Below, one piece after another: positions 461 through 12,153 of a DNA stretch of 12,153 nt. The stretch is from an uncultured bacterium (lineage in GTDB: Bacteria > CSSED10-310 > CAZUFC01), in the NCBI GenBank assembly GCA_964619725.1, contig CAZUFC010000036.1, positions 1-12,153 of the forward strand, read 5' to 3'. How positions within the stretch are numbered: the stretch's first letter is position 1; every line of letters starts with the position of its first letter. The position numbers were made by a program, and so were the translations under genes. Below the pieces are notes generated by a model that saw only the letters and a program-made list of their open reading frames with translations, made no database searches and was not told the origin of the DNA.

Positions 461-1873
461 TTATCCTCGAAGAACAGCCAGTGCGCCTTTAATCATGGTC
501 AGCGGTTTTATGGTGCGCCGTTTCAGATGTCTCAGGATCAGACGCGGTCTGGCATAGAAACGGAAAACAGCTTGATTTTGAATTTTAATCAGTTCTCGGT
601 CAGTCATATTTTCGGGTGTGAACAGCAATTTATCTTTCTTGTCTGCAGCATGCCAGCTTGAGAAGTATTCCGGTTTTTCCAGGGCTTTCTTTCTGACTTT
701 GATCTGCTCGAACAGTTTCGATCCGGGATAAGGTACGACGCGATTGAATTTGGCGAAGTCACAGTCGAGTTTTAAACTGAATTCAATCGTTTCTTGGCAT
801 GTTTTAACGGTATCTCCCGGAAGTCCCAGCATAAAAAAGCCCAGGCTGACGATTCCCGCTTTTTTGGTCGCTTGCATGGCGTTGTATGCCGCTTTTCTGC
901 TCAAGGGCTTACCGGCTCGCTTCATCACAGACTCGTTTCCCGATTCAAAGCCGTACATGATAAGCCTGAGTCCTGCCTCTTTCATTCTGGCCAGCAATTC
1001 GTAGTCGACCAGGTCCACTCTTGATTCGGTCAACCAGGTCATTTTGTTATGCAATTTTCTTCGGATAAGTTCGTCAGCGATATTAAATCCCTCTTGTCTG
1101 CTGACGGGAAATACCGAATCAACGAAACCGAAATGATTCACTCCGAATCGTTCATGCAACATTTCCGCCTCGTCGACAGCCTTCTCCACGCTTCTTTTCC
1201 TGAATGTCGGGAACATGACGTTCTGCGAGCAGAAGGAGCAGCGGTAGGGACAGCCTCTGGAAGCGGAAACCGGCATGATGACGCCGTTGAAAGAGAGCAT
1301 GGGCGCTGCTTTGTAATGCTTGAGATTCAGCAGGTCCCAGGCTGGAAAGGGCAAGGCGTCCAAATCGTCAACAGGATCGGCATCGCCTGTATAAAAAATG
1401 TTGCCGTTTTTGATGCAGGAAAGACCTTTTACTTTTTCGATGTCCAGGTTTTTCTCAAGAGCGTTCGCCAGTTCCGCCAGAATATATTCTCCTTCGCCGT
1501 GCACTATGAAATCGGCGGCTCCCTGATTAAGCAACTCTTGAGAAAAGTATGCGGCATGAATATTTCCCAGGACGACTTTCAATTTACTGTTTATCTTTCG
1601 TATTTCTGATACGGCATGAACGACGGCCGGCATGGCGGGAGTCAGGCAGGAAAAACCCACCAGATCAGGATCGTTTTTCATTATTTCGTCGACCAGCGTT
1701 TGAGTATCAGACTTATCGGCATACTGGTCGATTATAGATACTTGATGTCCTCTCATTCTCAGGACTGCGGCTATCGAGGCCAAACCGAGCGGTGCGACGG
1801 GAGTCATGAAAGGCCGGAAACGTCCCAGCACTTTTCGCAAATCCGCTCCTGGATTAACCAAGACAATTCTCAT
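461..1873 (-). CDS. Cobalamin-dependent (class B) radical SAM enzyme, probable methyltransferase, 470 aa
   Basis: N-terminal B12-binding-domain hallmarks (APLGLASIAAVL, GNIHA, GEGE), SRGCPYRCSFC CxxxCxxC motif, ESRVD, GFESG and FMLGLPGDT. ATG lies 1 nt after the upstream stop. Confidence 0.92.
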   Translation of the reverse strand: MRIVLVNPGADLRKVLGRFRPFMTPVAPLGLASIAAVLRMRGHQVSIIDQYADKSDTQTLVDEIMKNDPDLVGFSCLTPAMPAVVHAVSEIRKINSKLKVVLGNIHAAYFSQELLNQGAADFIVHGEGEYILAELANALEKNLDIEKVKGLSCIKNGNIFYTGDADPVDDLDALPFPAWDLLNLKHYKAAPMLSFNGVIMPVSASRGCPYRCSFCSQNVMFPTFRKRSVEKAVDEAEMLHERFGVNHFGFVDSVFPVSRQEGFNIADELIRRKLHNKMTWLTESRVDLVDYELLARMKEAGLRLIMYGFESGNESVMKRAGKPLSRKAAYNAMQATKKAGIVSLGFFMLGLPGDTVKTCQETIEFSLKLDCDFAKFNRVVPYPGSKLFEQIKVRKKALEKPEYFSSWHAADKKDKLLFTPENMTDRELIKIQNQAVFRFYARPRLILRHLKRRTIKPLTMIKGALAVLRG

Positions 1874-1874
1874 A

Positions 1875-2675
1875 TCAGACCTTCACAGCGCTGAAAACGA
1901 TGTCGAAATCGCCGCAACGGGAATCGAACGACCTTGCAGCGGCCTGCTCCGTCCTGAATCCATGTTTTTCGAGCAAATATTCCAGTTCGCAGCGTCCCAC
2001 CATTCGTTCCTTCCATTCCAGCACAACAGACCCGGCCGGCGTTCCCCGTTCAGACAAAAACTCAAACGTTAATCTCATCTGGATCGTCTGCTGAAAATAA
2101 TCGATATCGAGGACCCGGGATCGGGCGATAAATGAGCCTTCATTTTCAGGATGCGTGACTTTTACGGGGTGATGCTGGAAGGATTGCACGGCTTTCGGAG
2201 TGAGTATGTTCAGTAAAAATATGCCTCCCGGTTTCAAGGCGCGTCGAACGCCCTGAAGCAACTGAGATTGCTGTTTTTGTCCGGCGAGCAAATGAAAGGT
2301 GGCGCCCAGACAGACTGCCAGGTCAAAGGATTCCTTAAAGGGTAAAAACAGAAAATCCCCCTGTATGAGAGCGGCATTCTTTTTGACGCTGGGCGGCAAT
2401 TTTTGACAGGCGGCATCGGCATACCTCAGCAACTGTTCAGATATATCCAATCCGGCGCTGAATACATTGCGTTTCGCAGTCTCAAACAGAACCCGCCCGT
2501 AACCGCAACCCAACTCCAGCATTCGTGTTCCTGGCCGGCAATGATTCAAAACTGCAAGCACATCAACATCTTCTGAACCTGCCCCAGCTTCCTGCATCAT
2601 CATGGCTCGCCACAGGTCTCCATAGCATTCGTAAAGCCTGTTGTTTTCGTATTTCGGTTTTTTATTGGCGTTCAC
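1875..2675 (-). CDS. Class I SAM-dependent methyltransferase, 266 aa (start uncertain)
   Basis: Motif I LELGCGYGR, GLDIS, QGDF, FDLAVC and LKPGGIF. GTG start with a weak RBS. Confidence 0.9.
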   Translation of the reverse strand: MNANKKPKYENNRLYECYGDLWRAMMMQEAGAGSEDVDVLAVLNHCRPGTRMLELGCGYGRVLFETAKRNVFSAGLDISEQLLRYADAACQKLPPSVKKNAALIQGDFLFLPFKESFDLAVCLGATFHLLAGQKQQSQLLQGVRRALKPGGIFLLNILTPKAVQSFQHHPVKVTHPENEGSFIARSRVLDIDYFQQTIQMRLTFEFLSERGTPAGSVVLEWKERMVGRCELEYLLEKHGFRTEQAAARSFDSRCGDFDIVFSAVKV

Positions 2676-2707
2676 TTCTTCGATTCAGTCCATTCTGCTG
2701 CAGAAAA

Positions 2708-3958
2708 TTACCTTCCGACCAGGAACCTTCTGTAACGCGTCACTTTATAAAATATTTCCGCAATTTCGTCCATCTCTTCGATCGTTCCATTAAGCGCCGG
2801 GTGAGGCAAAAACAGGGTTCTTTTGCAGTAATCTTCGGCGACCGGGCATTCCATTTTCGTAAAATCGTGCTGTCTTTTCTGAAAGGGACAACTGACGGGA
2901 CATTCCTGTTTATCGAACATGCGATTCAGAAAGACAGGATTCTTGTAGACGGGATGCGGATATCCGGGAGCTGCAGGAACGCCTTCAGCGGTTAAGGCTT
3001 TAGCGACAGTCTCCGGCCTGGTTCCCGCGAATTTATTCAGGTCGATCAGCAGGACGAAAGCTGCAACAGCGCTGCGAAAGCCGGGCTTTGAGGCCGGTAA
3101 GGCTTTCCATCCCGGTATTTCTTTTATTTTTTGTCTCAGGTGATCGACGTTTTTTAACCTGTTTTCAATCATACCCGGCAGGCGGTCCAACTGATGATGA
3201 ACCATGGCCGCCTGGAATTCAGTCATCCGGTAGTTGGCGCCGGGGATATAATGAATAAAAGGATGACCGCCGGGTTTACGCCCGTAGTCTATGAGGGCTG
3301 CAGCTCTCTGATAGGTTTCAGAAGAATCCGTAACGATAAGGCCGCCTTCTCCCGCGGACAAAATTTTTCCTTCTGTGAAACTGAACACGCCGGCATGTCC
3401 GAAAGCGCCGGCGGTTTTATCCGATATTTCAGCGAAAGGAGCCTGAGCGCAATCCTCTATGACTTTGATGCCATATTCTTCGGCAATATTTTTTATTCTG
3501 GGCATATCGGCAGGATTTCCCCAAAGATGCACAGGAATAATCGCTTTTGAAGCCTCGGTGACGACACGCGGAATATCGTCGGGATCGATACAGTAAGTTT
3601 CCGGATCGATATCAGCGAACACGGGAACGGCATTGGCTTTCAGAACAGCTCCGGCGGTGGAATAAAATGTCGCCGCCGGCACAATAACTTCATCACCGGG
3701 GCCAATGCGCAAAGCATTCAAGGCCGTTTCCAGTCCTGCGCTGCCGCTTGAAACCGCCAGAGCATGCTTGCTCCCCGTCATGTCGGCAAAAGCCTGTTCC
3801 AGCCGAGCCGTCTTATCTCCTCTGGTCCATCTTGCTGAAGCAGCTATTTCCTTGATTTCTTGCGATAAATAAGACGGATCGACCAATGGAGTCCTTCCGG
3901 GACAGACCCTTATCCGGGGACCGCCGAATAACGCCAGCGGGTTCTTTCCTGTCGGCAT
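2708..3958 (-). CDS. DegT/DnrJ/EryC1/StrS-family PLP-dependent aminotransferase, 416 aa
   Basis: GPGDEVIVPAATF, PVFADID, IIPVHLWG, IEDCAQA, catalytic Lys in SFTEGKILSAGEGG, NYRMTEFQAA. Start re-placed at ATG 3958 (MPTGK), preceded by AGGAAGG and 1 nt after the upstream stop, instead of 4003. Confidence 0.93.
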   Translation of the reverse strand: MPTGKNPLALFGGPRIRVCPGRTPLVDPSYLSQEIKEIAASARWTRGDKTARLEQAFADMTGSKHALAVSSGSAGLETALNALRIGPGDEVIVPAATFYSTAGAVLKANAVPVFADIDPETYCIDPDDIPRVVTEASKAIIPVHLWGNPADMPRIKNIAEEYGIKVIEDCAQAPFAEISDKTAGAFGHAGVFSFTEGKILSAGEGGLIVTDSSETYQRAAALIDYGRKPGGHPFIHYIPGANYRMTEFQAAMVHHQLDRLPGMIENRLKNVDHLRQKIKEIPGWKALPASKPGFRSAVAAFVLLIDLNKFAGTRPETVAKALTAEGVPAAPGYPHPVYKNPVFLNRMFDKQECPVSCPFQKRQHDFTKMECPVAEDYCKRTLFLPHPALNGTIEEMDEIAEIFYKVTRYRRFLVGR

Positions 3959-3959
3959 A

Positions 3960-5273
3960 TTAACCTTCCTCTTTTGCGCCCAATCGCGACGCAGTTTCCA
4001 CAAACAAAGACCGCAAAAAATCGGCGTTGAATCCCTCGCCTTCCATTACCGGATTAAAATAACAGTATTTGTCCCAGTCATAGTGCAAAATATTCAATCC
4101 CATCTCCCGGCTCCGGCAAAACTGCGCCGTCCCTGGAAAGGGCGTGTTCAACCTAAGACAAATCTGAACGCCGTAAAGGTTCTTTAACCTCTCCGCATAG
4201 GCAATGGTCTTCTGCATCGTCGCATGCGTATCGCCGGGCAAACCCAACATGAAATAACAAAATACCGTTATTCCTGCATCTTTCAACAGATTTATTGCCG
4301 GTTCGACATCCTTCAATCTTAACTTCTTATTAATTCCCTCCAGAATATCCTGATCGCCGCTTTCTATGCCTATCTTTACCTTACGGCAACCTGCCACAGC
4401 CATTAATTCAATCAGTTCGGCGTCCAGAGCATCTATCCGGGTCTGACATTCCCAGGTCACATCTTCCAGATTCTCCGACATCAACTTAAGCAACATTATC
4501 GTTTTTCTCCTGTCATACGAGAAAAACTGATCATAAAAAGTGAAATGCTTCACGCCCTCACGACATAAATACACTATCTCCGAAAAAATGTTATCCGAAC
4601 TCCGGGAACGGATGCCTGATCCGAACATTTCCCTGGAGCAGCAAAACACGCATCGATGAAGGCATCCCCGGCTCCCCGTCAATGCCCCTGAATGACGATA
4701 ATGACCCACAGCAATCAATTCTCTGGCCGGTAAAGGCATCGAATCTAAATTTCGGACGCCTCGCTTTGCAGATTCTATAACCATTTTTCCATCATTATTA
4801 CTGTATGCCAGTCCGGGAATTTTGAATCCTGCCTCTTTCGCCTTGCCGCATCTCATGAGTTCCAGCAGCTCAATTAAACTCGAATCAGCCTCTCCGGCCA
4901 GAACGTAATCCGCTGTTCCCGGTTCGAGAAATTCTTCTGCGCAGAACGTCGTATGAACTCCTCCCGCCACGATCACGGCATTCGTCGATTTTCTTATTTC
5001 TTTTATGACATCCCTGGCCCGGCACGCGGTTTCGGTGTGTACGCTTATGCCGGCAACCCACGGATTTATTGTTCGTATTTTTTCTGTGAAATCCCGGCGA
5101 CTGACGTCCCGGTTTATCATGTCCATGACATGAGGTTCATAACCGTGCATACGCAACCTTGAAGCCAGGTAGAGCAACCCCAGGGGCGGCGAAGAGTGTA
5201 TTCCGTCCCGGCGATAAGCCAAATCGTAGAATTTCCTTAATGGCGGCTGTATCAGTAATACACGTTCTTTCAA
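3960..5273 (-). CDS. Cobalamin-dependent (class B) radical SAM enzyme, 437 aa
   Basis: PPLGLLYLASRL, GGVHTT, GEAD, SRGCLHRCVFC, TRID, GIESG and FMLGLPGDT. TTG start with GAGGA upstream. Confidence 0.92.
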   Translation of the reverse strand: MKERVLLIQPPLRKFYDLAYRRDGIHSSPPLGLLYLASRLRMHGYEPHVMDMINRDVSRRDFTEKIRTINPWVAGISVHTETACRARDVIKEIRKSTNAVIVAGGVHTTFCAEEFLEPGTADYVLAGEADSSLIELLELMRCGKAKEAGFKIPGLAYSNNDGKMVIESAKRGVRNLDSMPLPARELIAVGHYRHSGALTGSRGCLHRCVFCCSREMFGSGIRSRSSDNIFSEIVYLCREGVKHFTFYDQFFSYDRRKTIMLLKLMSENLEDVTWECQTRIDALDAELIELMAVAGCRKVKIGIESGDQDILEGINKKLRLKDVEPAINLLKDAGITVFCYFMLGLPGDTHATMQKTIAYAERLKNLYGVQICLRLNTPFPGTAQFCRSREMGLNILHYDWDKYCYFNPVMEGEGFNADFLRSLFVETASRLGAKEEG

Positions 5274-5276
5274 CGA

Positions 5277-5594
5277 TTAATCTTCCTCGGAAAATGTGGC
5301 CGTTTCAAAAGATATAAGCCTTATTTTCAATAAAGCATCCAGAAATTCAAAAACATGACATTGCAATTCCTCATCCGTCACCTTTTCGTCTTTATACCGT
5401 TCGATCACCTTATCCACGATATCGCCGACAGTATTCGATTCATCGATCATTTCCCATATTTCCGCTGCAGTATGATTCAATCGTTGCTCCATTTCACCGA
5501 ATATGATTATGGAACCGTCATCTTCTTTTTTCCACAGGAACGTTTCTTTTCTGGGCGTCTTTTTCAGCCATTCATTAAGAGCGGAATCTTCCAT
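5277..5594 (-). CDS. Stand-alone PqqD-family RiPP recognition element (RRE), 105 aa
   Basis: Short beta-strands followed by LNHTAAEIWEMIDESNTVGDIVDKVIERY...VFEFLDALLKIRLI, the typical PqqD pattern. GAGGA RBS 5 nt before the ATG. Confidence 0.9.
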   Translation of the reverse strand: MEDSALNEWLKKTPRKETFLWKKEDDGSIIIFGEMEQRLNHTAAEIWEMIDESNTVGDIVDKVIERYKDEKVTDEELQCHVFEFLDALLKIRLISFETATFSEED

Positions 5595-5595
5595 T

Positions 5596-5814
5596 TTAAT
5601 CCTCGCTTGCCTTAACGGGTATAATTTCTTTTATTTCTTTTAACGGACACCAGACAGAGAATCCCGTATCCCGGTCCAATTGCACCAGGATGCCTTCTTC
5701 GGAAGTTCCGGGATGATCGTGAAAACCGTACAGAATACCCGAAAACGACCCGTTCCGCTCTGTTCTTAACAGAATCCTGCTCCCGGCAATTTCCGTTATT
5801 TGGTCCCTGTTCAT
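5596..5814 (-). CDS. Small hypothetical protein, 72 aa, possible Sm/LSm-like beta-barrel
   Basis: AAAGGA RBS 7 nt upstream. It fills the gap between its neighbours (12 nt and 1 nt). The segment GSRILLRTERNGSFSGILYGF resembles the Sm1 pattern. Confidence 0.8.
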   Translation of the reverse strand: MNRDQITEIAGSRILLRTERNGSFSGILYGFHDHPGTSEEGILVQLDRDTGFSVWCPLKEIKEIIPVKASED

Positions 5815-5826
5815 CCCCGTTTCCTT

Positions 5827-7707
5827 TCAAGCGCCTTCGGGCAATCCTGTCATCATGGTCCGTGCTGTTCTGTCCGCACTGTCATCACTGAGCGGCGAGG
5901 TTTGGAATTCAGGCGTCCTGGATATCATCGGCGCTATTATTTTTCTTCGGATTCTTTCAGCTTTTCCGGCTGCATGCTGACCGGCGGCATCGCTGATAAT
6001 TTCATCCCAGCTTCTGTAGTTCAGTTCGCTCATCAGTTCAAAAGCCTCTTCATCTACGGATGTCAGTTTCGAGTTAAAAAGGTCAAAGACAAAATAACCG
6101 TTTTTCCATTTAAAAGGAAATATTTTCAGGCTTTTCGGACCTATTGTTTTTGTAAGCCGGTCCTGCCAGCGATTCAAAAAATCGTCAGCAGCCTTAAAAC
6201 GTTTTTCGAATTTTCTTACCGCTTCACGTAAGGAATAGAATCCCGGAACAGAATGCTCCGTCAAACCGATCAATTCTTCCAGGAAGTCCACTTCAGCCTC
6301 ATTCAACATACTAGTCAGAAAATGAAATTGATTGATCGCCTGCCTGGTGCGGGCCTTTCCTATTATATTTCTCCAGGGAATTGCATCAACTTCGATTCTT
6401 CTGGCCCGTCTAACGAAATTATGCATATATATTTTAGCGATAACGACCAGGCAATGGAAAACAAAAGCGATTCTCTCGTCTTTGAATCGGAAATGATATA
6501 AAAAACCCTCGCGAAAAAGGACTCCCGCCTTCTTCAAATCATCCATAACAGGCACATTGGAAAAGAGATAAAGGAAATTGGCGACGGTGACCAGGACGCT
6601 TTTTTTCCTTATTCTCTCCTTGTAGAAGTTCACAGTGGCTTTTAATTCCTGGAACGTCGTAAAAGGATCGAAAGCGATGTAGCCGATGGCTGAATTCACC
6701 TGAAGACTATCCAGTATTTCCAGGGCTTTTTCATTATCCCTGACGGTTTGTCCTTTTCTGTACATCCTGAGTTGACGGGGATTAACGGATTCTATGCCCA
6801 GGAATACGGATTGCAGTCCCACCTTTTTGAGCGTTTCGATTGTTTTGTAATCCACCTGGGAAGCCCTCACCGGCAGATTTATCTTCACCGGTATTTTTAA
6901 CTTCGTCATGGCCCTGTAAAGATCGTAGATGCGTTCTTTGGACTCTTTTCCAGGTACAATGAAATTATCGTCCACAAAACTGATGACGTTCAATTCGGGA
7001 AACCGGTCAAGCAATATGTTCATTTCAGCAACGATATTTTCGGCGCTGCGCGTTCTCCATATGCTGCCGGGAGAAGCGCCGTAGAATTTTCGTATGGCGC
7101 AGAATGCGCATCGCGCCGTGCAGCCTCTATCGGTCAACAGCGATATCTGCTCCCGCCCCAGGATCGTCCGTCTTGCATTCGGACGCAAAGGAAACGGCAG
7201 TTCATCCAGGTTTTCGATAAGAGGAGTCGGCGGATTGATCGTTATGTTTGACCCGTCGCGGTAAGCGATGCCGGAAACGCTGCGATGATTTTCCCCGCGA
7301 CGCAATTTTTCCATCAATTCCTTTATCGTTCTTTCACCCTCGCCGTACACGACGATATCGACGGAAGCCGCTTTTTCCATAAGTTCCCGAATGTTTCCCG
7401 TGGGTCCGTATCCTCCCATTATTATCACGCCTTCGTATCCTTGGCGTCGAATCTTCTCCGATATTTCAACCACGCAATCCAGGGATTGATCCAACGCCGT
7501 GAATCCCACGGCGCCCGGCGACAGTTCGCAGATCAACCGGATCGTCTGGTCCCGGCTCAGCTCATTCATTATCATGTTTACTATCAGCGTATCGAATCCC
7601 GCCTCCTCTAAAACCGCAGCCAGATATCCCACACCCAGATGATCAATGTAATATTCCGGGGTCTCGAATTCCGGTATGACTAAAATGATGTCGGAAACTG
7701 GTTTCAT
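5827..7707 (-). CDS. Cobalamin-dependent radical SAM enzyme with C-terminal extension (probable RRE), 626 aa
   Basis: HLGVGYLAAVL, GGYGPT, GEGE, RGCTARCAFC, FVDDNF and LGIES. Start re-placed at ATG 7707 (MKPVSDIILV), which overlaps the CPBP stop as TGATG. The ORF-track start at 7935 lies inside the upstream gene. Confidence 0.9.
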   Translation of the reverse strand: MKPVSDIILVIPEFETPEYYIDHLGVGYLAAVLEEAGFDTLIVNMIMNELSRDQTIRLICELSPGAVGFTALDQSLDCVVEISEKIRRQGYEGVIIMGGYGPTGNIRELMEKAASVDIVVYGEGERTIKELMEKLRRGENHRSVSGIAYRDGSNITINPPTPLIENLDELPFPLRPNARRTILGREQISLLTDRGCTARCAFCAIRKFYGASPGSIWRTRSAENIVAEMNILLDRFPELNVISFVDDNFIVPGKESKERIYDLYRAMTKLKIPVKINLPVRASQVDYKTIETLKKVGLQSVFLGIESVNPRQLRMYRKGQTVRDNEKALEILDSLQVNSAIGYIAFDPFTTFQELKATVNFYKERIRKKSVLVTVANFLYLFSNVPVMDDLKKAGVLFREGFLYHFRFKDERIAFVFHCLVVIAKIYMHNFVRRARRIEVDAIPWRNIIGKARTRQAINQFHFLTSMLNEAEVDFLEELIGLTEHSVPGFYSLREAVRKFEKRFKAADDFLNRWQDRLTKTIGPKSLKIFPFKWKNGYFVFDLFNSKLTSVDEEAFELMSELNYRSWDEIISDAAGQHAAGKAERIRRKIIAPMISRTPEFQTSPLSDDSADRTARTMMTGLPEGA

Positions 7708-8546
7708 CAGGATAAAAGCGCCCCAAAGAAACGATAATTGTCGATCAGTCCATGCACGGCTATTCCGGGTATTAAACTGCCCGAACGACGATAGACCTTG
7801 CACAGCGACGCATGAAAAATCAATACGGCCATTCCGTAAAAAACCGCATGCCCAACGCCGCCGACCTGAGCCTCTATCAGGACCGTACGCCAATGACTCA
7901 ACAAGTAAACCGCACCCGATAAAACAACAGCCCATCCCCGGGAAAACCTCCCCAAAAACGCAGGAAACAAAAATCCCCGATAATAGAACTCTTCCAGCAA
8001 AGCTATGTAAATAAAACCTCTGAATACTGCAGCCGCTGCGCCTGCTCCGGAAACAGGACGAACAGGAGGCGCCATCCCGGACATGAAAAGGATTCTCAGA
8101 AGCGTCGGAGCGATTCCCAGGAGCGTCAGCAGCAGAAGTCTTTTATCTATGACGAACCCTATATCCTTCAGGCCGGAACGGTCCAGGAGCATACGCCAGA
8201 TGAATGGAACAACGAGCATAATTAGAACCATAATGCTGGGAACCAGCATCGCCCTGGGCCCGGGAATTCCGCTTCCCGCAGGGAAATCCTTTAACAGCAC
8301 GGCCTTTCTTTGAACGGCCGTCAGTATTAAAGGAAGGAAACTGAAAAGCATCAACTCCAGGGGGCTGTATTTTCTTATCTCAATTTTTTTCCTGATTCGA
8401 GGATAAACCACGAAAGTTATGCAAAGGAATCCCAGCATATGCGTGATCGCATAAGGGTCTATAATGATCAGACTTATAACGTAAAGCAAGACGGCGCGGA
8501 ATGGATCGCTGATATAATTTTCAATTCTGGAAAGTATATTTTTCAT
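7707..8546 (-). CDS. CPBP (Abi/type II CAAX) family intramembrane glutamic protease, 279 aa
   Basis: Multiple hydrophobic segments with the family motifs EExxxR (EEFYYRG), F/YxxxH (YLLSH) and HxxxD/N (HGLIDN). Confidence 0.9.
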   Translation of the reverse strand: MKNILSRIENYISDPFRAVLLYVISLIIIDPYAITHMLGFLCITFVVYPRIRKKIEIRKYSPLELMLFSFLPLILTAVQRKAVLLKDFPAGSGIPGPRAMLVPSIMVLIMLVVPFIWRMLLDRSGLKDIGFVIDKRLLLLTLLGIAPTLLRILFMSGMAPPVRPVSGAGAAAAVFRGFIYIALLEEFYYRGFLFPAFLGRFSRGWAVVLSGAVYLLSHWRTVLIEAQVGGVGHAVFYGMAVLIFHASLCKVYRRSGSLIPGIAVHGLIDNYRFFGALLS

Positions 8547-8552
8547 TTCAGG

Positions 8553-9782
8553 TCAGTTCGGACCGGCAGCGTTTTTCGATTCACCCGGCAGGCTTCCTGT
8601 TATGATCATGCCCAGCAAAGGCAGAAGAGGATAAGTTTTAAACAATATCTCAATGACTGCGGCGGATTGAAGCATAAGGGTTGCGATGAGGAGTGAGACG
8701 CCGCCGGTTACGTTCATGACGAACATAATGACGGAATTTTCCAGGCCGCTTTCCACACGAATGAATTCCCGCAAGTTGGAGAAGATGAGATTCGACATAT
8801 ACGCTTCAGCAGCCATAAATAATCCCCAGCATATGATTTTGACGGGATCGTTGCGAAAAAACAAGGCGATGACGACCGAAATGAGCGTCATAGCCGCGAA
8901 AACCAGCCTGGAATGACTCAGTTTTATTCTGTCCGTGGACTGAAGCATTACCGATGATACCAGGAAAATAACGAAAGACAGCAGGACCAGTAGTCCGACA
9001 GAGGGCATTTCTTCAGCAGAACTTATTTTCAGCAAATGCACCGGTATGGCGAAAAGGTATATCGCTCCGCCATATCGCACAATCGATATCATTACGAACA
9101 ATCTGACTGTCCGGCGATTCATTATGCGGGCTATGGTTTTCCATCCTGACAGAATCGTTAGATCGGAAGCTGATTTCAGCTTTATTTTTCTTACTCCGAA
9201 AAAGAAAAGGAATGCCGCTGCGATTATGCCCAGAGCGCCGGCGATAAAGGGAAGGATGGTTTTTACTCCGTAAAGCGACATGCCGACGGGATACCCCAGC
9301 CAGCCCAGTCCTGAAAAGATCATTATGCCGATGTAAAAACGGGAAATCAGATCAGGCGGCAATGTGGAAAGCGTAAAAACTCGACCGGCCGTCTGACTTA
9401 AAGCCACGGCCATGCCTGCTGTGAAACCCAGCAGTGCGAGCAGCATAAAATTTTCAATGAAAAAGAAAAATAATATCGGCACGACGGAATAAAGGAGCAA
9501 AGCTATCGTCAATATCCTGCGATAATTGTATTTTTCCACCAGGTATCCTGCGAAAGGACATAATAACGCCATCCCCCAATAGGATGTCATCAGTAAAAAT
9601 GAAATATTCGAAAGCGTATACTCATTATCCAGCAAAAAACGTATCTCTGCCAGATACAGTATCGACCCCGCAATGCTCAATACTACGTCGCCCAGCAACG
9701 GGTATAAAAAAATTCTCTTTTTTATGATCTCAAGGTATTTTGTTGCAGGCGCAGCTATTGTTTTCTCCAGACCAGCGACCAT
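8553..9782 (-). CDS. MFS-type transporter, 409 aa (likely exporter)
   Basis: About 12 hydrophobic segments in about 400 aa and a motif-A-like loop GYLVEKYNYRR. Overlaps the upstream rSAM by 28 nt. Confidence 0.8.
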   Translation of the reverse strand: MVAGLEKTIAAPATKYLEIIKKRIFLYPLLGDVVLSIAGSILYLAEIRFLLDNEYTLSNISFLLMTSYWGMALLCPFAGYLVEKYNYRRILTIALLLYSVVPILFFFFIENFMLLALLGFTAGMAVALSQTAGRVFTLSTLPPDLISRFYIGIMIFSGLGWLGYPVGMSLYGVKTILPFIAGALGIIAAAFLFFFGVRKIKLKSASDLTILSGWKTIARIMNRRTVRLFVMISIVRYGGAIYLFAIPVHLLKISSAEEMPSVGLLVLLSFVIFLVSSVMLQSTDRIKLSHSRLVFAAMTLISVVIALFFRNDPVKIICWGLFMAAEAYMSNLIFSNLREFIRVESGLENSVIMFVMNVTGGVSLLIATLMLQSAAVIEILFKTYPLLPLLGMIITGSLPGESKNAAGPN

Positions 9783-11179
9783 AAAGCGTTTTCAAGACAT
9801 TCATAGTTGAATCGACAGAAAGGGTCTCTATCCTTCAAATCACCTCTCACCTGATAGGCGCGAGCCCTGCAGCCGCCGTTACAGAATGTTTGCAAATCAC
9901 AGAACGAGCAACCGACAAAATCGAATTTCCGGAGTTTCACATATTTTTCTATTGAAGCATCATGAATGGACTTCATGTCCTTCTCACGAAAATTGCCCAG
10001 GCGAAAATCATCTCGATGAAAAAAAGGACAGGGGAAAACGTCGCCGTTCGGAGCAACGCTCAATATGCTGCAACCCATGCCGCAATTTATTATGTTAACG
10101 CCTTCAATCAGTCCCGTGTAATCGTTCAAACAGGATATGTGCAGCCCGAAATCCGCCGGTTCTCTCCCATGAACGCCTGATGTCGTCAGTAACGTGTTTG
10201 CCTTCTCAGCCGTCTTCTTTAAACCGGCTATGAGACTTTCCCTCTCCGGCGCCCTTTCACCGGCTCCTTCATAACCGTGTACCGGCAACTCAATATTGAC
10301 GCGAAGAAAATTGCATCCCATTTCATAAGCCAGCTCCGCCATCTCCTCCAGGCGTTCAAAATTTCCCGAATGCACCGTGCAGCAAAGACCGATAGAAACG
10401 TCAGAATCCATCTTTAAATTCAACTTCTGAAGCATTTCCACGTTCCGCAACACTCTGTCGAAAACGCCCTCTCCCCTCGTCAAACTGTTCGTCTCCTCGT
10501 CAGGCCCGTCCAGCGATATCTGCACCAGATCGATAAAAGGCAACGCTTCTCTCCATAAGTCCTCGTCGCCGACCGTCCCGTTCGTCGGCACGGTAATGGA
10601 ACCCGCTCCCTTCTCTCTTACGGTCCTCAGTATTTCCGTGAACTGCGGGTGCAGCAGAGGCTCGCCGCCTGTCAGAACTACATTAAGCTGACTGAGAACG
10701 TCCCGGTCCATCCACTCCAGAAGAACTTTCATATCGTCAGGTTGAAGCTCCGTCGCCGCCGCTGTGTCGGATGAACAATCCACATAACAGTAAGGACATG
10801 ATAAATTGCACCGATCAGTCACATGAAGATACAACGTCCTCAAAACCGGATGAACCGTCGCCGGCTTATCGTTATATGAAATCTTCTCCGCTTCCGATTC
10901 TCTGAACGCTATTCCCAGCTCATTCGCCTCGCATAGAAAATTCATTACATCCGGCAGAATGACCGATTTCAAAAGTCCATACTTCGACGACAATTCTTCC
11001 GCCGTCTCTTCAACCGTCAAACCCTTCTCGCAAAGACGCAGAATCTCCGTTCCCACGTCGTTTGTTCTCATCCACCTGGCAGTATCGGGAAATAATATCA
11101 GATACTGAACGCCTCTTTGCCTTACCTCAAATGGATATACTCTAAACCGTTCTCCGGCATCAATGCTCCGACGGCCCAT
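9755..11179 (-). CDS. RRE-radical SAM-SPASM peptide maturase, 474 aa
   Basis: N-terminal PqqD-like domain (NDVGTEILRLCEKGLTVEETAEELSSKYG...DVMNFL), CNLSCPYC, TGGEPLL, QISLDG, and a full SPASM domain: CGMG...GDVFPC...CSFC-x5-CNGGC...DPFC. Confidence 0.93.
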   Translation of the reverse strand: MGRRSIDAGERFRVYPFEVRQRGVQYLILFPDTARWMRTNDVGTEILRLCEKGLTVEETAEELSSKYGLLKSVILPDVMNFLCEANELGIAFRESEAEKISYNDKPATVHPVLRTLYLHVTDRCNLSCPYCYVDCSSDTAAATELQPDDMKVLLEWMDRDVLSQLNVVLTGGEPLLHPQFTEILRTVREKGAGSITVPTNGTVGDEDLWREALPFIDLVQISLDGPDEETNSLTRGEGVFDRVLRNVEMLQKLNLKMDSDVSIGLCCTVHSGNFERLEEMAELAYEMGCNFLRVNIELPVHGYEGAGERAPERESLIAGLKKTAEKANTLLTTSGVHGREPADFGLHISCLNDYTGLIEGVNIINCGMGCSILSVAPNGDVFPCPFFHRDDFRLGNFREKDMKSIHDASIEKYVKLRKFDFVGCSFCDLQTFCNGGCRARAYQVRGDLKDRDPFCRFNYECLENALWSLVWRKQ

Positions 11180-11251
11180 AACGCGCTGTTCTCTCCAGAT
11201 ACTGCAATCCGAGACTGCAATTTTCCAAAAACGGGATGAAATAAATTAAAT

Positions 11252-11428
11252 TTATGAAGCCACGGCGATGCCTATGGCTACTCCGGCAGTCACAGCCGTA
11301 CTGCCCGCGGCTGTGCCTACCACCAGCCCGTCTCCGCAGAATCCGACATTATATTGAGCCTTCTCCGTGCCGCCCATGCCGGCTGCATTTATTTTCGGCG
11401 TAGTATAGATGACAGGTTTTACATACAT
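11252..11428 (-). CDS. RiPP precursor peptide A2, 58 aa: MYVKPVIYTTPKINAAGMGGTEKAQYNVGFCGDGLVVGTAAGSTAVTAGVAIGIAVAS
   Basis: Translated by hand; shorter than anything in the ORF track. RBS GGGAAAGGA at 11445-11437, TAA stop. 49/58 identical to A1. Confidence 0.9.
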   Translation of the reverse strand: MYVKPVIYTTPKINAAGMGGTEKAQYNVGFCGDGLVVGTAAGSTAVTAGVAIGIAVAS

Positions 11429-11476
11429 TAATCCGATCCTTTCCCGTGATCAATCGGTCCGATTCGTCCTCTTTTC

Positions 11477-11505
11477 TTTTAACATGAAAAGAGAAGACAA
11501 GTCAA
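11477..11505 (-). promoter_or_regulatory. Putative promoter-like motif upstream of A2 (TTGACT-N15-TGTTAAAA)
   Basis: Near-consensus -35 hexamer, with the same layout as the motif upstream of A1. The -10 match is weak. Confidence 0.35.
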
Positions 11506-11533
11506 GAAAACGGCATTTTTTCGGAACGTTCGA

Positions 11534-11713
11534 TCACGAGGCTACGGCGACTCCTATGGCTACGCCGGCAGTGAGGGCCGTGCTGCCCGCTGAAGCGTAT
11601 ACCACTAAAGAATCTCCGCAGAATCCGACGCTGTACTGCGCCTTCTCCGTGCCGCCCATACCCGCGACGTTGATTTTTGGAGTCGAATAAATGACGGGTT
11701 TTACATACATCAT
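11534..11713 (-). CDS. RiPP precursor peptide A1, 59 aa (58 aa if started at 11710): MMYVKPVIYSTPKINVAGMGGTEKAQYSVGFCGDSLVVYASAGSTALTAGVAIGVAVAS
   Basis: Translated by hand. Same RBS GGGAAAGGA at 11727-11719, TGA stop. Paralog of A2 with mostly synonymous differences. Confidence 0.9.
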   Translation of the reverse strand: MMYVKPVIYSTPKINVAGMGGTEKAQYSVGFCGDSLVVYASAGSTALTAGVAIGVAVAS

Positions 11714-11756
11714 TCGCGTCCTTTCCCTTACTGCGCAATATCTCCATCTTTTATTG

Positions 11757-11800
11757 ATTAACAGATTTCTCCGGTTAAGTCAAATTGTCAACTTTTGACT
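11757..11800 (-). promoter_or_regulatory. Putative operon promoter (TTGACT-N14-TGTTAAT) overlapped by the palindrome AGTCAAA-N9-TTTGACT
   Basis: Minus-strand TTGACT at 11783-11778 and TTGACA at 11791-11786. Perfect 7-bp inverted arms at 11778-11784 and 11794-11800. Confidence 0.45.
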
Positions 11801-12017
11801 ATAATCATCCTGGCGTTTTTAATCGCAGTGTTTTTAAGGATTTCCAAAGTATCAATTGCGGTGGTGATTATTGTATCAAGAAAATTGTGTTCCGGTGTTC
11901 CGTGGCTCAGAGCCCTGCCGAAACTCTTATGAAAAAAATATTTATTGTCCGCGAAACTTCGCGAATCTACGCGAAAAAGAGCAGAGCCATGTAAAGCAAA
12001 GAAAACATGGAAACGGA

Positions 12018-12153
12018 GCATTGATCAAAAATGGGTCTTTTGAGGTTACATTTTTTTCCGAATATTCCATCATTTTATTTCGATTTCGATCCCGATTACG
12101 ATACCGATTGCGATACCGATGCCGACCCCGATTATCGAAAAAAACTGTCGAAT
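12018..12153 (-). repeat. Right copy of the inverted repeat, with an (ATCGNN)x9 array; runs to the window edge
   Basis: Its reverse complement reads ATTCGACAGTTTTTTTCGATAATCGGGGTCGGC...ATCGAAATCGAAATAAAATGATGGAATATTC...TGTAACCTCAAAAGACCCATTTTTGATCAATGC, matching 255-401. Confidence 0.88.

Follow-up and report, generated by a model that had tools for sequence, protein, structure and literature searches.

A doubled YxxPxI motif in the leaders of two precursor peptides of an orphan radical-SAM-rich RiPP cluster

Gene content and genomic setting of the cluster

The stretch of DNA analysed here (12,153 bases, hereafter the window) forms the beginning, from base 1 onward, of contig C36 (66 kb) in a 9.17-Mb MAG, which is 90.9% complete with 6.5% contamination. 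The genome is the sole representative of its order, in a phylum that holds 14 genomes. All cluster genes (461-11713) were located on the minus strand, and the downstream genes were co-directional and partly overlapping. Two precursor genes, A1 (11534-11710) and A2 (11252-11428), are followed by the gene for a 474-aa radical SAM/SPASM maturase with an N-terminal RRE (9755-11179), whose nearest solved relatives are CteB and SkfB. Further genes encode an MFS transporter assigned by Pfam (8553-9782), a CPBP/Rce1-like intramembrane protease that is a candidate leader peptidase or immunity protein (7707-8546), a 626-aa B12-binding radical SAM enzyme (5827-7707) and a discrete protein of the PqqD family. 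They also include two other B12-binding radical SAM enzymes, of 437 aa (3960-5273) and 470 aa (461-1873), in which no RRE was detected, a DegT/DnrJ/EryC1-family PLP aminotransferase (2708-4003) and a SAM methyltransferase (1875-2675). The best NCBIfam match of the methyltransferase, daptide_MTase, was far below the cut-off (68.4 bits, cut-off 175).

The long ORF 5827-7935, which contains the 626-aa enzyme, overlaps the CPBP gene; translation probably begins at the ATG at 7705-7707, one base of which also belongs to the CPBP stop codon (TGATG, 7705-7709). The overlap is a sign of translational coupling between these two genes. Neither a sigma-70-like promoter nor an intrinsic terminator was detected in 11100-12153. 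The 15 kb flanking the precursors on the side away from the maturase gene carried unrelated genes (secretion ATPase, kinase, glycosyltransferase), and a plus-strand open frame running off the window (12031-12153) encoded an Asp-rich repeat (DFDPDYDTDCDTDADPDY).

The Pfam matches in 26 kb of the contig (C36:1-26000) included neither a lasso cyclase nor a B2 protease, and PF13471, the lasso B2 protease family, had no matches in the 90.9%-complete genome. These two results argue that the locus is, as judged from its predicted gene content, a non-lasso, radical-SAM-rich RiPP cluster. The presence of one SPASM and three B12-binding radical SAM enzymes in 461-11713, together with a Val/Ala/Gly/Thr/Ile-rich core, suggests a hydrophobic peptide product that is heavily C-methylated. 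The aminotransferase and the methyltransferase (1875-4003) accompany a radical SAM/SPASM enzyme whose second-best NCBIfam match was the mycofactocin maturase MftC. It is speculation that the C-terminal Ser undergoes oxidative decarboxylation, followed by transamination and N-methylation, to give a daptide-like amine C-terminus without DapB/DapC. The daptide pathway employs the DapB/DapC (PF00465) decarboxylase pair, an aminotransferase, the methyltransferase DapM and a C-terminal Thr (PMC12338566), whereas the cluster contained no PF00465 match and its precursors end in Ser, not Thr.

The maturase has the same RRE - radical SAM - SPASM domain order as CteB (5wgg) and SkfB (6efn). A family profile, built from 10 sequences that were all 25-30% identical to the enzyme of the window, matched CteB (E 9.8e-54) and SkfB (2.4e-45) over nearly their full length. 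The best NCBIfam scores included 120 bits for StsB (cut-off 625) and 95 bits for PapB (cut-off 340), and no equivalog cut-off was attained. An RRE-rSAM-SPASM enzyme beside precursors with one Cys each (FCGD) would be compatible with a sactipeptide or ranthipeptide system. A difference lies in the leader: HIxxI, in place of YxxP, is the motif reported for sactipeptide leaders (PMC12710340).

Two precursor genes and their doubled hexapeptide

Both A1 and A2 are minus-strand ORFs of 58 aa, with the stop codon included in the coordinates given. A second in-frame ATG at 11711-11713 provides A1 with an alternative start, which would give a 59-aa product. A common ribosome-binding site, GGGAAAGGA, was located 8 nt 5' of the aligned ATG in the two genes. 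The N-terminus of A2 reads MYVKPVIYTTPKINAAG... and that of A1 reads M(M)YVKPVIYSTPKINVAG...; the longer N-terminal stretches are MYVKPVIYTTPKINAAGMGGTEKAQYNVGFCGDG... for A2 and M(M)YVKPVIYSTPKINVAGMGGTEKAQYSVGFCGDS... for A1. The two proteins are identical at 49 of 58 residues (84%), and both have a Gly/Ala/Val/Thr-rich tail ending in AVAS.

The original prediction described two back-to-back YxxPxI hexapeptides at residues 2-7 and 8-13 of both precursors, and the translations of A1 and A2 bear this out: each opens M-YVKPVI-Y[T/S]TPKI. In A1, motif 1 (YVKPVI, residues 2-7) is encoded at 11690-11707 and motif 2 (YSTPKI, residues 8-13, followed by NVAG) at 11672-11689, both on the minus strand. 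The corresponding minus-strand positions in A2 are 11408-11425 for motif 1 (YVKPVI, residues 2-7) and 11390-11407 for motif 2 (YTTPKI, residues 8-13, followed by NAAG). The span 11387-11710, from the motifs of A2 to the start of A1, therefore has both motif copies inside it. YVKPVI and Y[T/S]TPKI each match the consensus [Y/W]xxPx[L/V/I/A/F/Y], to which PqqD-type RREs bind in the lasso, PQQ and LPP systems according to the available text of PMC13381572.

Downstream of the hexapeptides, residues 17-33 (GMGGTEKAQY(N/S)VGFCGD) are near-invariant between the paralogues. This segment contains a Gly-Gly, which is a possible cleavage site, and the sole Cys of each precursor, found in FCGD in a C-x-D arrangement, which is a possible site of a thioether or other cross-link. 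The spacer between A1 and A2 (11429-11533, minus strand) forms a stable stem-loop; the interval 11429-11540 folded with -36.1 kcal/mol (z -2.76), and 2 of 200 shuffles folded equally well. The stem-loop may serve in processing or stabilisation and thereby set the ratio of precursor to enzyme transcripts.

The frequency of the motif was determined in all six-frame open frames of at least 50 aa in the 9.17-Mb genome (8.27 million residues). The single motif Y..P.[ILV] occurred 2689 times in these frames, and the strict tandem Y..P.[ILV]Y..P.[ILV] was found six times, including A1 and A2. Approximately 0.87 tandems would be expected in these frames, assuming independent single motifs, in comparison to the six observed; A1 and A2, as paralogues, count as one event in this argument. 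Because the tandem is rare in the genome and is placed at residue 2, a chance origin at that position of a precursor adjoining predicted PqqD-type domains seems very unlikely.

The comparison of A1 and A2 revealed six synonymous changes and one non-synonymous change (T9S, at an x position) within residues 2-13. The codons of P5, I7, P11 and I13, i.e., four of the six motif-defining residues, differ synonymously. Across leader residues 1-33, pS was 0.69 and pN 0.04 (dN/dS ~0.02), while the core (residues 34-58) gave a dN/dS of 0.18. The paralogues are old by this estimate, with leader synonymous sites near saturation, and the leader pS of 0.69 excludes gene conversion as the cause of the leader identity. 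Judged from this one pair of paralogues, purifying selection acts on both motifs. Residues 14-33 were as constrained as residues 2-13, and the selection is thus not specific to the motifs.

PqqD-type domains and proposed docking of the leader

Three separate RREs had been proposed for the cluster. Two of them, RRE1 and RRE2, passed the PF05402 cut-off of 23.4 bits (44.6 and 35.3 bits), and the third, in the C-terminal extension of the 626-aa enzyme, did not. RRE1 is the PqqD domain fused to the radical SAM/SPASM enzyme (residues 26-90; 10910-11104, minus strand) and carries N40, Y67, D77 and F81, whereas RRE2 is a discrete PqqD-family protein of 105 aa (5277-5594, minus strand) with N40, Y67, H80 and F84. 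Their sequences are 16% identical, and they account for two of the three PF05402 matches genome-wide. The third PqqD-family gene of the genome (C111:13839-14033) lies upstream of two 350-aa proteins, beside large TPR proteins.

The C-terminal extension of the 626-aa enzyme is approximately 100 residues long, and the segment considered as RRE3 (5905-6135, minus strand) is supported by leads only. A single-sequence AlphaFold2 model (pLDDT 55) predicted the RRE-compatible order strand-strand-helix-helix-helix, the nearest language-model neighbours of the extension were PqqD clusters (score 0.94, 198 of 256 features shared), and a weak match (E 0.017) was obtained to the N-terminal 50 positions of a ScfB-related maturase model. 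The extension had no Pfam match at E up to 10, a probability of 0.8% against the RRE1 profile in hhalign, no Foldseek hit in the PDB at E 0.001 or better with the model, and a best Z of 3.6 in a wide fold search with VIA-align. By eye, it lacks the Tyr/Asp/Phe triad. RRE3 is thus kept as a candidate and, if it is a real RRE, it is probably not a YxxP binder.

A profile made of the N-terminal domains of the RRE1 family and RRE2 matched TbiB1 (E 3.9e-10), TfuB1 (6.7e-8), PqqD (5sxy, 2.2e-7), LppB (9x8z, 5.4e-7) and PbaB1 (9x90, 2.6e-6). Among these, the lasso and LPP RREs have been solved in complex with [Y/W]xxP leaders, and PQQ precursor leaders reportedly contain a lasso-like motif (PMC13381572, available text). 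The earlier statement that YxxPxL-type docking is known beyond lasso peptides is upheld by the PQQ and LPP leaders treated in the same source. In LppB, N33 fixes the Pro kink and its replacement (N33A) almost abolishes assembly of the LppB-leader complex, the Tyr hydroxyl is contacted by D70, with a weaker complex in the D70A variant, and both residues are conserved in many PQQ and lasso RREs (PMC13381572, available text).

The LppB contact residues were transferred by hand to RRE1 and RRE2 from the ungapped profile alignments and one further alignment. In this mapping, RRE1 residues N40, V42, I46, L63, Y67, I74, D77, F81 and I90 correspond to LppB N33, V35, C39, I56, Y60, V67, D70, F74 and L83, respectively. 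The RRE2 residues at contact positions are N40, I46, V63, Y67, L77, F84 and L93, and His80 occupies the Asp position, where the alignment follows a 3-residue insertion and is uncertain. RRE1 therefore keeps both the Asn and the Asp (N40, D77), and RRE2 keeps the Asn only. Since RRE1 and RRE2 match YxxP-binding RREs and RRE1 retains the Asn/Asp pair, there is good ground for reading YxxPxI as a putative docking motif of RRE1, and the same reading is plausible for RRE2. The lack of PF13471 in the genome further indicates that the two RREs serve this non-lasso pathway. As reported for SuiB, a fused RRE is not necessarily the leader-binding site. Co-folding of the RRE1 domain (residues 1-104), RRE2 and leader residues 1-36 was uninformative, with scores of 0.06 and 0.18 (mark 0.32) and no contacts.

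It is likely, from these sequence comparisons, that the leader is a PqqD-type docking segment in which at least motif 2 is in use. The resemblance to RRE motifs could instead be coincidental, with the N-terminus serving some different function and the RREs binding elsewhere, e.g., to the invariant GMGGTEKAQY.VGFCGD. The near-invariance of that segment between the paralogues and the diversity of RRE recognition sequences, of which 13 motif classes are described in the available part of PMC12710340, are compatible with a coincidence. The cluster's RREs, however, belong to the YxxP-binding subgroup with contact residues kept, and the tandem motif is rare in the genome, and we regard this explanation as highly improbable.

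The spacing of the two motifs bears directly on how a docking segment of this kind could be used. In solved complexes, the RRE footprint extends from K-18 to Q-7 in LppA and from K-18 to L-7 in PbaA; these approximately 12 residues comprise one anchored through its backbone 2-3 positions ahead of the aromatic residue, the six-residue motif, which fills two pockets, and 3-5 strand-paired residues (PMC13381572, available text). Motif 1 and motif 2 are 6 residues apart, and strand pairing by an RRE at motif 1 would engage residues 6-11 and bury Y8 and P11, on which an RRE at motif 2 depends. Two canonically bound RREs would consequently clash, and the leader probably cannot dock two of them simultaneously, assuming the canonical mode in both registers. 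The two motifs also differ in their surroundings. Upstream of Tyr2 of motif 1 there is only Met1, and the backbone-anchor residues are absent, so that motif 1 is without canonical flanks. Flanks for backbone pairing would take 2-3 residues ahead of the aromatic one and 3-4 past the motif; motif 2 is flanked on either side in this way and shows the spacing YxxPxIx3G, and the Gly of lasso leaders is spaced as YxxPxLx3G.

We propose that residues 1 to 16-17 of A1 and A2 would act as the docking segment for the PqqD-type domains of the cluster. The grip would be that of the lasso, PQQ and LPP RREs, in which the leader peptide is added as an extra beta-strand: the Tyr and the Ile two residues past the Pro would fill two hydrophobic pockets, while an RRE Asp would hold the Tyr hydroxyl and an RRE Asn the Pro kink. 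Motif 2 (Y8-x-x-P11-x-I13-x3-G17) would be the canonical site, because residues on both sides of it allow strand pairing, and motif 1 (Y2-x-x-P5-x-I7) would constitute a second register overlapping the motif 2 footprint. At most one RRE would occupy the leader at once, with RRE1 and RRE2 taking turns, and RRE2 would presumably work with the tailoring enzymes and with those B12-rSAM enzymes that have no RRE. Leader binding, the register used by each RRE and the mutual exclusion are what we infer here. The chances of the combined arrangement, with a canonical motif 2, an overlapping motif 1 and one RRE at a time, appear evenly balanced.

The original prediction had the leader offering two separate docking sites, each favoured by a different RRE-bearing maturase, so that the partition sets the order of modification. 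This is consistent with the divergence of the two confirmed RREs, which differ at the Tyr-hydroxyl position (D77 versus H80) and share 16% identity, with the differences between the motifs at x positions (VK.V versus T/S-T.K), with the purifying selection on both motifs and with engineered chimeric leaders, which reportedly act likewise. On the other hand, a 6-residue spacing is set against 12-residue footprints, making simultaneous binding unlikely, motif 1 is without upstream anchor residues and RRE3 fails the Pfam, hhalign and fold searches. Given the predicted clash, separate docking is tenable only if the two sites are used alternately or in sequence. That motif 1 is an independent second site is doubtful, albeit a serious possibility, and a partition of the two motifs between different RREs is unlikely, which holds equally for the two-site explanation as a whole.

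The simplest rival to two sites takes motif 2 as the docking site, with motif 1 in an auxiliary role. Motif 2 would then be the sole docking site and motif 1 an N-terminal extension of the bound strand, which might simply add affinity or be retained on other grounds, for instance because the CPBP protease or a B12-rSAM enzyme recognises it or because it is needed for export. Only motif 2 reproduces YxxPxLx3G, the Gly spacing of lasso leaders, with flanks on two sides; LppA and PbaA have an anchor residue 2-3 positions before the aromatic residue, which motif 1 cannot supply; and the remaining leader is equally conserved without being a YxxP motif. Nevertheless, an exact abutting second match to a 3-position motif is expected at ~1e-7 per position, and Y2, P5 and I7 are all kept, the latter two despite synonymous codon changes. 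We consider a sole site at motif 2 to have a limited, though appreciable, chance of being correct.

Within the arrangement that we propose, of one RRE at a time on overlapping registers, a more specific version may be considered. RRE1 and RRE2 would each prefer one of the overlapping registers, mutually exclusively, and the leader would be passed between enzyme sets. Such a register switch is a long shot on the present comparisons.

Relation to known systems, distribution and implications

Close parallels in motif form are found in lasso peptides (TbiA-TbiB1, 5v1v/5v1u; TfuB1, 6jx3). The YxxPxL form is alike, with a consensus-allowed Ile for Leu, and motif 2 has a Gly four residues past the Ile. 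TbiB1 and TfuB1 were the best PDB matches of the RRE profile of the cluster, and the Asp and pocket residues are retained in RRE1. Unlike lasso systems, the cluster has no lasso cyclase or B2 protease among the Pfam matches in 26 kb, and its precursors lack a Thr at the -2 position given by lasso spacing; the hexapeptide is present twice, and a radical SAM enzyme carries one of the RREs. The LPP system (linear polyphosphorylated peptides; LppA-LppB, 9x8z; Popov et al. 2026, PMC13381572, available text) is a non-lasso RiPP in which a YxxPxV leader is combined with a PqqD-type RRE, and equivalents of N33 and D70 are present in RRE1. The tailoring enzymes are different from those of LPP: neither a kinase nor a signal-peptidase-like leader peptidase was found among the Pfam matches of the cluster, and LPP leaders, as presented in the available text of that source, carry one motif within a longer consensus. 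With PqqA-PqqD, the cluster shares RREs assigned to the PqqD family by both Pfam and NCBIfam, and PQQ leaders have a lasso-like motif; no PqqB/C genes are present here, and the RREs scored 27.8 and 28.5 bits versus a PqqD equivalog cut-off of 46. In the engineered chimeric leaders of Burkhart et al. (from 2017), two recognition sequences are said to recruit two enzyme sets. Those leaders are artificial, and their motifs are of different types and placed apart, whereas the copies here are of the same type and abut.

Homologues of the precursors were sought in several collections. A word-indexed search of 5.8 billion clusters gave 3 candidates, of which only the window's own 2 proteins were precursors, and a HMMER profile search of 1.84 billion representatives gave 4 matches at E up to 0.001, one of them a protein of the window itself. 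The other three HMMER matches (3148, 2278 and 529 aa, with 18, 8 and 4 stretches, respectively) were read as low-complexity. In a metagenome contig scan, 45 stretches matched the pattern and 0 were confirmed. Against NCBIfam at E up to 10, the precursors returned only spurious NAD-kinase and MreC rows. The search for RRE2 homologues yielded 4 candidates, with RRE2 itself the only one retained.

The radical SAM/SPASM enzyme had distant relatives. Two were found in genome contigs, at 27-29% identity; within the phylum, 2 of 14 genomes matched, including its own, the other at 29% identity. The best non-self matches in a protein search were 30-31% identical, and a second metagenome scan retained 80 loci at 24-32% identity. 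Small ORFs with one Y..P.[ILVMF] near the start numbered 26 in these 80 metagenome loci, and none of the 26 flagged ORFs beside distant maturases had a doubled motif or likeness to the leader. There were likewise no doubled-motif small ORFs at 3 genome loci of maturase relatives. The pattern M-YxxPx[ILVM]-YxxPx[ILVM] had 6 matches in 5 of 401 sampled genomes of another phylum, none of them relevant, and the reversed control had 8. Single YxxP motifs are described in the available parts of PMC6784204 and PMC13381572. A natural tandem YxxP leader was not found in the open literature searched, a scope with subscription journals and supplements outside it. Within the collections searched, the cluster is an orphan on the basis of sequence similarity, having no precursor or RRE2 relatives and no maturase relative above ~31% identity.

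The doubled YxxPxI leader is a variation on a known recognition system, within an orphan cluster. As no relatives of the cluster above ~31% identity and no precursor homologues were found, the cluster probably makes a new peptide scaffold. The ordering of steps on a single leader is a general question for multi-enzyme RiPP pathways, and leaders that recruit several enzyme sets have been built by hand by peptide engineers. A natural leader with abutting copies of the best-understood RRE motif, accompanied by two RREs of the matching type, offers a small testable system. If the register switch were true, it would fix when cross-linking, B12-dependent methylation and C-terminal tailoring take place relative to one another, and the leader would represent a natural, compact counterpart of the engineered chimeric leaders.
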